This document shows positions 17,152-17,221 of a stretch of 64,000 nucleotides of DNA, in pieces. Source of the DNA: a phage. Both the position numbers and the translations under genes were made by a program. The stretch is taken from assembly GCA_014437165.1 (NCBI GenBank), contig GCA_014437165.1_4090.3; one strand, 5' to 3'. Below the pieces are notes generated by a model that saw nothing but the letters and a program-made list of their open reading frames with translations, made no database searches and was not told the DNA's origin. Every line of letters begins with the position of its first letter. Position 1 is the stretch's first letter.

Positions 17152-17185
17152 ATTTCCTCCTTTATTCATTATACTATATTTAATC

Positions 17186-17214
17186 AAAAAGAAAAGCCAG
17201 TACTCTGTACTGGC
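17186..17214 (-). terminator. rho-independent terminator (minus strand)
   Basis: GCCAGTAC-AGA-GTACTGGC hairpin followed by T-tract on minus strand. Confidence 0.7.
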
Positions 17215-17221
17215 CTATATT

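Follow-up and report, generated by a model that had tools for sequence, protein, structure and literature searches.

An intergenic cassette in the RCC1-like gene array of an Asteriusvirus-type jumbo coliphage: an intrinsic terminator joined to a probable T4-type late promoter

The DNA analysed here, a 64,000 nucleotide (nt) phage contig referred to below as the window (GCA_014437165.1_4090.3, assembly GCA_014437165.1), carries on its minus strand an array of genes with a common N-terminal tag, most of them encoding RCC1-like proteins, and a short cassette recurs between members of this array. We interpret the cassette, described here from its copy at 17152-17221, as an intrinsic terminator followed by a T4-type (gp55) late promoter with a TAAATA box and a strong ribosome-binding site, and we put the probability of this interpretation at roughly 70 %. 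TAAATA is taken as the late box because it is depleted genome-wide, enriched upstream of genes and found ahead of structural genes, and because a late sigma factor is encoded. The order on the minus strand is hairpin, T-tract, TTTGTATTAAATATAGTATAATGAATAAAGGAGG and ATG, and the individual features are as follows.

17152-17221, minus strand: the cassette, forming the entire intergenic space from the stop codon of gene 17222-17959 to the ATG of gene 15976-17151
17194-17216, minus strand: intrinsic-terminator hairpin AGGCCAGTAC-AGA-GTACTGGCTT for the upstream gene; 10 pairs, -13.9 kcal/mol, z -4.25
17184-17193, minus strand: terminator T-tract (TTCTTTTTGA)
17177-17182, minus strand: TAAATA box, proposed to act as the -10-like element of a late promoter of the T4/gp55 type
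17168-17173, minus strand: TATAAT hexamer, with neither a -35 nor TGn, straddling the predicted late start
17156-17162, minus strand: Shine-Dalgarno sequence AAGGAGG, 4 nt ahead of the ATG
17116-17151, minus strand: N-terminal tag codons (MLPFARMVKYGN), the 3′ part of the conserved block

The best matches to window positions 12300-24300 are the Asteriusvirus jumbo coliphages vB_EcoM_G17 and Sharanji (99.2 % identity, with a coverage of only 61 %), with 121Q, PBECO4, phAPEC6 and others at a greater distance, and these matches place the source among the Asteriusvirus-type jumbo coliphages (121Q/PBECO4/G17 group). Nine of the ten intact array genes match RCC1-like beta-propeller families in Pfam, and the tenth (17222-17959) encodes a glycine-rich protein belonging to a PHROG without a name. 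Small plus-strand genes flank the array on both sides, and the early region to its right matches, in part, the terminal repeat of related phages. A preliminary description of this DNA had placed the cassette upstream of each tagged gene; the repeat is real, but only five of the ten intact genes have it in full. In these five a 34-nt string occurs on the minus strand with 0-2 mismatches (17156-17189, 17965-17998, 19225-19258, 20445-20478 and 21685-21718), where shuffled sequences lead one to expect none, and each copy has a hairpin and T-tract on its upstream side (-12 to -13.9 kcal/mol, z -4.3 to -5.5) and AAGGAGG, then ATG TTA CCT TTT, on its downstream side. The first array gene (ATG 24071) is preceded by a hairpin-less variant, GGTAAATATGATATAAC; four others are tightly coupled to the preceding gene and have no promoter-like spacer (ATG 22860, 15967, 14814 and 13624), one of them retaining a cassette remnant, TTTAAATATAATATAAAGGAGG; and an eleventh, truncated tagged unit (ATG 12383) has a hairpin and CCTAAATATAATAAC. 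The array, the other copies and the neighbouring divergent promoter are located as follows.

12455-24071, minus strand: tagged-gene array of ten intact genes, each opening MLPFxRMxKYGN
17960-18025, minus strand: full cassette (TATTATAAT variant), ahead of gene 17222-17959
19220-19284, minus strand: full cassette ahead of gene 18032-19219, within the 127-nt segment 19169-19295
20440-20506, minus strand: full cassette ahead of gene 19291-20439
21681-21747, minus strand: full cassette ahead of gene 20511-21680, with TATAAC replacing TATAAT
24072-24110, minus strand: array-head variant GGTAAATATGATATAACAAATAAAGGAGG, with TAAATA at 24098-24103, no hairpin (z -0.42) and the extended -10-like TGATATAAC
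14815-14840, minus strand: decayed remnant TTTAAATATAATATAAAGGAGGG, within the final part of the gene before it
12384-12449, minus strand: cassette copy before the truncated MLPFRRII unit, with a hairpin at 12427-12449 (-15.5 kcal/mol, z -6.3) and CCTAAATATAATAAC
24121-24149, plus strand: perfect sigma70 promoter (TTGACA-17-TATAAT) belonging to the early small-gene region and diverging from the array head, to which it stands back to back

The first part of the cassette has the form of an intrinsic (Rho-independent) terminator, a GC-containing hairpin with a T-run placed after a stop codon. The cassette hairpins are annotated as terminators (ARNOLD) in the record of G17, the closest phage, the record of Salmonella phage Munch also has terminator features, and the cassette stems of Munch contain compensatory changes (GGCTAGTAC..GTACTAGCC and TGACAGTAC..GTACTGTCA). 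An extra TAAATA at 20508-20513 (minus strand) overlaps the stop codon of gene 20511-21680 (GTTTAAATATATGCC) and lies directly upstream of a terminator hairpin, such that a transcript begun there would run straight into the terminator. The array also contains two decayed RCC1 units on the minus strand, one at about 12000-12383 comprising a 44-codon MLPFRRII... stub and then out-of-frame RCC1-like sequence, the other at 13625-14004, a 380-nt non-coding gap that follows the short gene 14005-14814 and resembles an RCC1-like C-terminal end; both are in the same state in G17.

The more constant of the two AT-rich hexamers is TAAATA. Among 40 tagged units from the window, G17 and a third Asteriusvirus, EC22.5-2, the sequence TAAATA, 3 nt upstream of TATAAT, is kept in every copy that has a spacer, and it is present in 8 of 8 cassette-derived copies of the window, in 27 of 27 distinct aligned Asteriusvirus copies and in 4 of 4 Munch copies. 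It is retained in the array-head variants (GGTAAATATGATATAA[T/C]), in the strongly diverged EC22.5-2 unit 3799 (TGTAAATACATTATAATTATTATATGGAGA), in the pseudogene copy (CCTAAATATAATAAC) and in the remnant within a coding region (TTTAAATATAATATAAAGG). The TATAAT box noted in the preliminary description is exact in four of the five full copies of the window but reads TATAAC in the copy at 21685-21718; across the Asteriusviruses it has become TATAAC in three distinct copies and is lost in two (the pseudogene copy and the remnant). A MAFFT alignment of 31 distinct copies, which misplaced the remnant win_9487 and so listed only the AAA of the box as strictly invariant, agrees once the misaligned row is set aside: TAAATA is constant and TATAAT variable. 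The ungapped identity profile understates the upstream conservation owing to indels of 1-2 nt.

The same box precedes tagged genes well outside the genus. A tblastn search with one array protein extends the tagged RCC1-like family to further jumbo phage genera (27-38 % identity), and upstream of its members in Munch the sequence reads hairpin, T-tract and AATTAAATATAGTATAATTAC, with both boxes present. The corresponding regions of GAP32 (two genes), Serratia BF, Yersinia fHe-Yen9-04 and Xanthomonas XaC1 read GGGTAAATAC, GGTAAATAC, GGGTAAATAT and CCTAAATAT; their TAAATA boxes are separated from the ATG by at most about 60 nt, and no TATAAT is present at the fixed spacing in the tagged genes of these four phages. 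Taking these phages and Munch together, nine of ten tagged genes that have a real intergenic region contain TAAATA somewhere in the last 95 nt or so before the ATG, for which a generous chance rate of 8 % per gene gives a binomial P of about 1e-9. The tagged genes of Erwinia phage Kaldavass form a fully coupled operon in the stretch examined, which excluded the operon head.

We examined the hexamer genome-wide in the complete EC22.5-2 genome (351,992 bp), in which our own crude gene calling gave 583 genes. Of the 64 hexamers composed only of A and T, none is as depleted as TAAATA, which has 223 occurrences on both strands against expectations of 909 from composition and 491 from a fourth-order Markov model (the second most depleted has a ratio of 0.53), and the window likewise contains 26 copies against 136 +/- 12 in dinucleotide shuffles. 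Its occurrence 31-55 nt upstream of EC22.5-2 start codons is, however, far above chance, with 62 sites where about 5 are expected. Between -62 and -22 there are 69 sites, 13 at tagged RCC1-array genes and 56 at others, and the latter are almost entirely confined to 113-346 kb. When 20 of the genes downstream of these 56 sites were sampled with PHROGs, 16 had structural or packaging matches (tail sheath, two tail tube, major head, large terminase, baseplate hub, tail fibre, tail protein and eight 'virion structural proteins'), the remaining four being one HNH nuclease and three that match only families of unassigned function. The base before TAAATA at the 56 sites is A in 30, C in 14, G in 8 and T in 4, and the base after it is not G. 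T4 late promoters start 6 nt after the box, and a purine occupies the sixth base past TAAATA in 44 of the 56. The position matrix of these sites shows no general TATAAT downstream and, apart from a T-rich bias, no information upstream of position -1. A T-run lies just upstream in 24 of the 56, accompanied by a stable hairpin in 11 of the 24, and a terminator followed by a late box is thus a common arrangement in EC22.5-2 rather than one specific to the RCC1 genes.

T4 late promoters (TATAAATA) are read by gp55 with gp33 and the sliding clamp. EC22.5-2 encodes a candidate late sigma factor at 217486-218328, a locus outside the window: this open reading frame (ORF) is the orthologue of the 'sigma factor for late transcription' of CBB (a CBB/GAP32 protein; E 6e-139) and matches PHROG late-sigma families at 2.7e-154 and 8.5e-18. 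A phmmer search of all EC22.5-2 ORFs with T4 gp55 gave no match, and the predicted link to gp55 is at the profile level only. A minimal sigma factor and a gp33 orthologue have been reported for the group 2 jumbo phages (PMC7824862), and Asteriusviruses also encode an RpoD-like sigma factor (PMC11895373, PMC7247149). Three promoter classes have been predicted for CBB and GAP32, one RpoD-like with an UP element, one with TGAAACG and TGnTATAAT, and one, ATAAATA/CTAAATA, which lies ahead of structural genes and was compared by its authors to the T4 late promoter (PMC5259590). The same promoter table contains CTAAATATGATATA and CTAAATATAATATA (PMC5259590), both almost identical to the cassette sequence. 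The preliminary description had proposed a comparison with the late consensus of related phages; the TAAATA core, by which this class is defined among these phages, matches the ATAAATA/CTAAATA class, although in most RCC1 copies the core is preceded by T. A literature search found no transcriptome, transcription start site or promoter study for Asteriusvirus, 121Q, PBECO4 or Sharanji; RNA-seq is available for PA5oct, a distant relative, and includes no RCC1 data.

The products of the array are consistent with such an assignment. The virion proteome of phAPEC6 includes eight RCC1-array proteins, gp003, 005, 006, 007, 009, 010, 549 and 551 (PMC7247149), and the proteins of window genes 20511-21680, 19291-20439, 15976-17151 and 14005-14814 are 81 %, 92 %, 87 % and 99 % identical to gp003, gp549, gp006 and gp007, the third of these genes being the one behind the cassette at 17152-17221. 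The suggestion that these genes would suit structural or injected proteins gains indirect support from virion detection of the orthologues of four array proteins, and this detection would fit late expression despite low peptide counts.

If the cassette acts as a late promoter, the Rho-independent terminator would end the transcript of the upstream gene and, late in infection, the host RNA polymerase core with a gp55-type minimal sigma factor, probably joined by a gp33-like co-activator, would bind TAAATA with no -35 contact. Where and when transcription starts, and on which factors it depends, is inferred: it would begin about 6 nt past TAAATA, inside TATAAT and near 17170-17172, so that the leader would measure about 20 nt, and would halt at the next hairpin, making each gene, or group of two to four genes, an insulated late unit. 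The products would be RCC1-like propeller proteins bearing the tag MLPFxRMxKYGN that end up in virions, and the block from hairpin to tag would serve as a homology patch by which whole gene units are gained or lost, as with the PeSL elements discussed below.

The cassette resembles T4-type late promoters in having a single AT-rich -10-like box and no -35, a TAAATA core ahead of genes for head, tail and packaging, a purine some 6 nt past the core, avoidance of the motif elsewhere and a gp55-type sigma factor in the genus. It differs from them in that the core is 6-7 nt rather than an octamer, that T precedes it in the RCC1 copies and that a conserved TATAAT follows the TAAATA of the cassette after 3 nt; dependence on gp55, gp33 and the clamp and late timing are only predicted here. 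Several observations tell against a late promoter. The T found before TAAATA in most RCC1 cassettes is the rarest base at the other sites (4 of 56), and the full T4 octamer TATAAATA is for this reason unmatched, the cassette reading ATTAAATA; the box, at -31/-32, is slightly nearer the ATG than usual (about -35 to -45); and at the modal start position the cassette has a T between two A residues. The arrangement TAAATA-N3-TATAAT is exact in both Asteriusvirus and Munch although the proteins share only about 27 % identity, which suggests some function of TATAAT itself that a late promoter does not explain, and the TGATATAAT at the array heads of G17, EC22.5-2 and phAPEC6 is likewise left unexplained. 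The paralogue copies are not independent, and gene conversion could hold any sequence uniform. The detections by mass spectrometry in phAPEC6 virions amount to 1-5 peptides each (PMC7247149), and the class is assigned to the cassette by motif and context only.

The most serious alternative, which we nevertheless consider unlikely, is that TATAAT is a genuine sigma70 -10 lacking a -35, acting alone or overlapping a late promoter, so that expression would be weak and early or constitutive with a later burst. TATAAT is perfect in most copies and stands at identical spacing in Munch; among the 56 other late sites, at least 4 have it no more than about 20 nt past TAAATA, against an expectation of about 0.6; and the extended -10 form TGnTATAAT, which works without a -35, is matched at the array heads by TGATATAAT (G17, EC22.5-2 and phAPEC6 gp549) and TGATATAAC (window). 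The cassette is thus like an extended -10 promoter in its perfect or near-perfect -10 without a -35. The internal copies, however, have TAG or TAT instead of TGn in the three bases before the hexamer, which lies just 16-17 nt from the ATG, and at 15-19 nt from TATAAT (TATAAC in 21685-21718) the best match to TTGACA in the five full cassettes is 2-3 of 6. Were sigma70 to start transcription 7 nt past TATAAT, the transcript would begin at about 17161, on the first base of AGGAGG, with a leader of 10 nt. The changes to TATAAC and the losses described above, the absence of the hexamer at that spacing in GAP32, BF, Yen9-04 and XaC1, and the lack of a general TATAAT signal at the 56 other late sites point the same way. 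Because it has no -35 or TGn, is not kept in most genera and would direct a start into AGGAGG, TATAAT is unlikely to be the main -10 of the cassette, and a canonical sigma70 reading of the five full copies was rejected, as was the sole -35-like candidate, CTGGCA/T-17-TATAGT using the 3′ arm of the hairpin, whose 8-9 matches of 12 are no better than in shuffles. Promoter-like sites in 11500-25500 number 68 against 69.4 in shuffles. A -35 at 16-18 nt or a TGn is found only in the array-head variant (TGATATAAC, ATG 24071), and a secondary sigma70 function is possible, at least at the array head. The preliminary description was correct in finding no recognisable -35 and in contrasting these genes with those of the plus strand, which has 14 perfect TTGACA-16/17-TATAAT sites at 29.5-49.5 kb and the one at 24121-24149. 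Its conclusion that a late class driven by a phage factor is involved gains indirect support, because TAAATA precedes structural genes, a gp55-type sigma is encoded and orthologues are found in virions, though its argument from TATAAT was aimed at the wrong box.

Two further explanations appear considerably less probable still. One, slightly the better of the pair, is that the cassette is not a promoter, the array being transcribed from its head only, with hairpins that are leaky terminators or RNA-stabilizing or processing structures, and with a uniformity downstream of the hairpins that reflects gene conversion among paralogues or a ribosome-loading role. Four array genes are indeed simply coupled and have no cassette, the hairpins are modest (-12 to -14 kcal/mol) and the gain and loss of units shows that cassettes recombine. 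This account sits poorly with a TAAATA that is avoided genome-wide yet kept in every copy, even in diverged ones with changed neighbouring bases, and in genera whose cassettes are otherwise unalignable, and with the T-run and TAAATA that also precede unrelated structural genes (24 of 56, 11 of them with a stable hairpin). The other is a middle promoter for the second, RpoD-like sigma factor of the phage, which would use TATAAT as its -10 alongside some unconventional element further upstream. Asteriusviruses do encode such a sigma factor (PMC11895373, PMC7247149), and the class predicted in related phages combines a perfect TATAAT with the non-canonical -35 TGAAACG (PMC5259590); but the cassettes contain no TGAAAC-like element and no TGn, the place of an upstream element is filled by the terminator T-tract, whose length varies, and a strict regular-expression search for TGAAACG-N13-15-TGnTATAAT finds none in the window. 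In EC22.5-2 this class has only three good matches, none at RCC1 genes. Middle expression, which had also been raised for these genes, is thus not favoured, the TGAAACG...TGnTATAAT motif being absent.

Besides its proposed role as a terminator and late promoter, the cassette also serves, on the present reading, as a homology patch and recombination point for the gain and loss of gene units; the junction of a unit insertion or deletion lies inside it. DNA identity between paralogues is 0.92 in the first 20 coding nt, 0.72 in the next 20 and about 0.3 (ungapped) in the gene bodies, and the block conserved between divergent paralogues extends for about 115-130 nt from the hairpin to the tag. The arrays of the window and G17 are collinear at 98.6-99.8 % identity, save for one extra head unit and one extra internal unit of 1.2 kb in G17, and at the indel junction the alignment blocks overlap by 127 nt (window 19169-19295), which is the cassette from the hairpin to codon 17. 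The three phages compared differ in their number of tagged units (10 in the window, 12 in G17 and 15 in EC22.5-2, plus one pseudogene each), and phAPEC6 gp007 has a full cassette where its window orthologue keeps only a remnant (14815-14840).

This behaviour recalls the PeSL and PmSL of T4-like phages, in which a terminator stem-loop is combined with an early or middle promoter and which mediate modular gene shuffling (PMC2839356, PMC4122927) and lie at indel junctions (PMC4122927). Like them, the cassette is a short repeated block of stem-loop and promoter flanking variable genes, with degraded 'half' copies adjoining indels and the junction of a whole-unit indel falling in the block. Its promoter part, however, appears to be of a late type, unlike the early sigma70 promoter of PeSL and the Mot-box middle promoter of PmSL (the PeSL paper describes only early and middle versions and does not mention late promoters), the conserved block runs into the first 12 codons, and the cassette organizes a single paralogous family rather than unrelated ORFans.

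The plus strand of the window contains repeated promoter blocks of other kinds. Many of the perfect promoters at 29500-49500 sit in a repeated block (..AGTACTGTATAATAGTTTACAT..) that is followed by a G/C-rich leader hairpin and a small gene, and these blocks resemble classical PeSL-type early cassettes. A second cassette family, AAAGGGTTGACTTCGGTCAGCCCTTTTTGCTATAAT, occurs at about 440, 4940, 6220 and 7640, with variants at 37633-37660, 41321-41348 and 44784-44811; the 5′ arm and loop of its terminator hairpin contain the -35 TTGACT, TGnTATAAT follows 18 nt later, and terminator and promoter therefore overlap physically. Between about 49600 and 55760 (plus strand) about 25 small genes (65-85 aa) stand in a long tandem run and are mostly translationally coupled; their 3′ ends and upstream regions resemble one another, and they seem to form one paralogous family.

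Another feature of these genomes is the palindrome AGTACT, often in the form (C)AGTACT(G), which occurs 257 times in the window where shuffles give 20.7 +/- 4.8 (for example at 17199-17204, 18009-18021 and 19276-19281). It forms the stems of the cassette hairpins, occurs in and around early promoters and, inside genes, favours codon phase 0. EC22.5-2 contains 919 copies where 119 are expected (7.7-fold, far above other 6-bp palindromes), most densely in the early region, and stretches of Kaldavass, Munch, Serratia BF, GAP32, fHe-Yen9-04, XaC1 and CBB show a 5- to 27-fold excess. A protein-binding site and a methylation target are both possibilities; our literature search found no published description of this excess. 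Conversely, CCATGG, AGGCCT, AGCGCT, CCCGGG, CCGCGG and CGCGCG are wholly absent from the 352 kb of EC22.5-2, with about 32 copies each expected of the first two, and the absence of these GC-containing palindromes is consistent with restriction-site avoidance.

The conserved block ends in the tag, and the tag itself is widespread. Its pattern M[LIF]P[FI]x5YGN is conserved in at least six jumbo-phage genera and also heads proteins that are not RCC1-like, namely the glycine-rich product of 17222-17959, GAP32_002 and Serratia BF gp372, the latter two annotated 'virion structural protein'. Its presence on RCC1 and non-RCC1 proteins alike suggests, from sequence, that it may have a shared targeting or anchoring role. 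The internal proteins of T4 share an N-terminal capsid-targeting sequence, and they are like the array in forming a polymorphic, virion-carried set with a short conserved N-terminal peptide in common; the two groups have no sequence similarity, however, and cleavage or a capsid location of the array proteins is only conjectural.

A T4-style late box would put the expanded RCC1-like family of the Asteriusviruses among the late, virion-associated genes, and the late assignment bears on the role of these 'DNA condensation' proteins. It would also provide a late consensus for annotating the genus, (A/C)TAAATA with a start about 6 nt downstream and often straight after a terminator. The late motif had already been predicted in sister genera, and the cassette is probably one more case of a terminator running directly into a late promoter of the T4 type. 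It also shows that jumbo phages, like T4-like ones, recombine at composite terminator-promoter blocks. More speculatively, and with the odds rather against it, the cassette and tag together may be a late-promoter counterpart of PeSL, with the 12-residue tag as a signal for incorporation into virions and TATAAT as a second layer of control, by sigma70 or otherwise. Were this so, a portable module of terminator, late promoter, ribosome-binding site and tag would allow the phages to swap, multiply and discard hypervariable, virion-carried beta-propeller proteins, and the array, much like the internal-protein system of T4, would be a locus that generates diversity in virion cargo or decoration.

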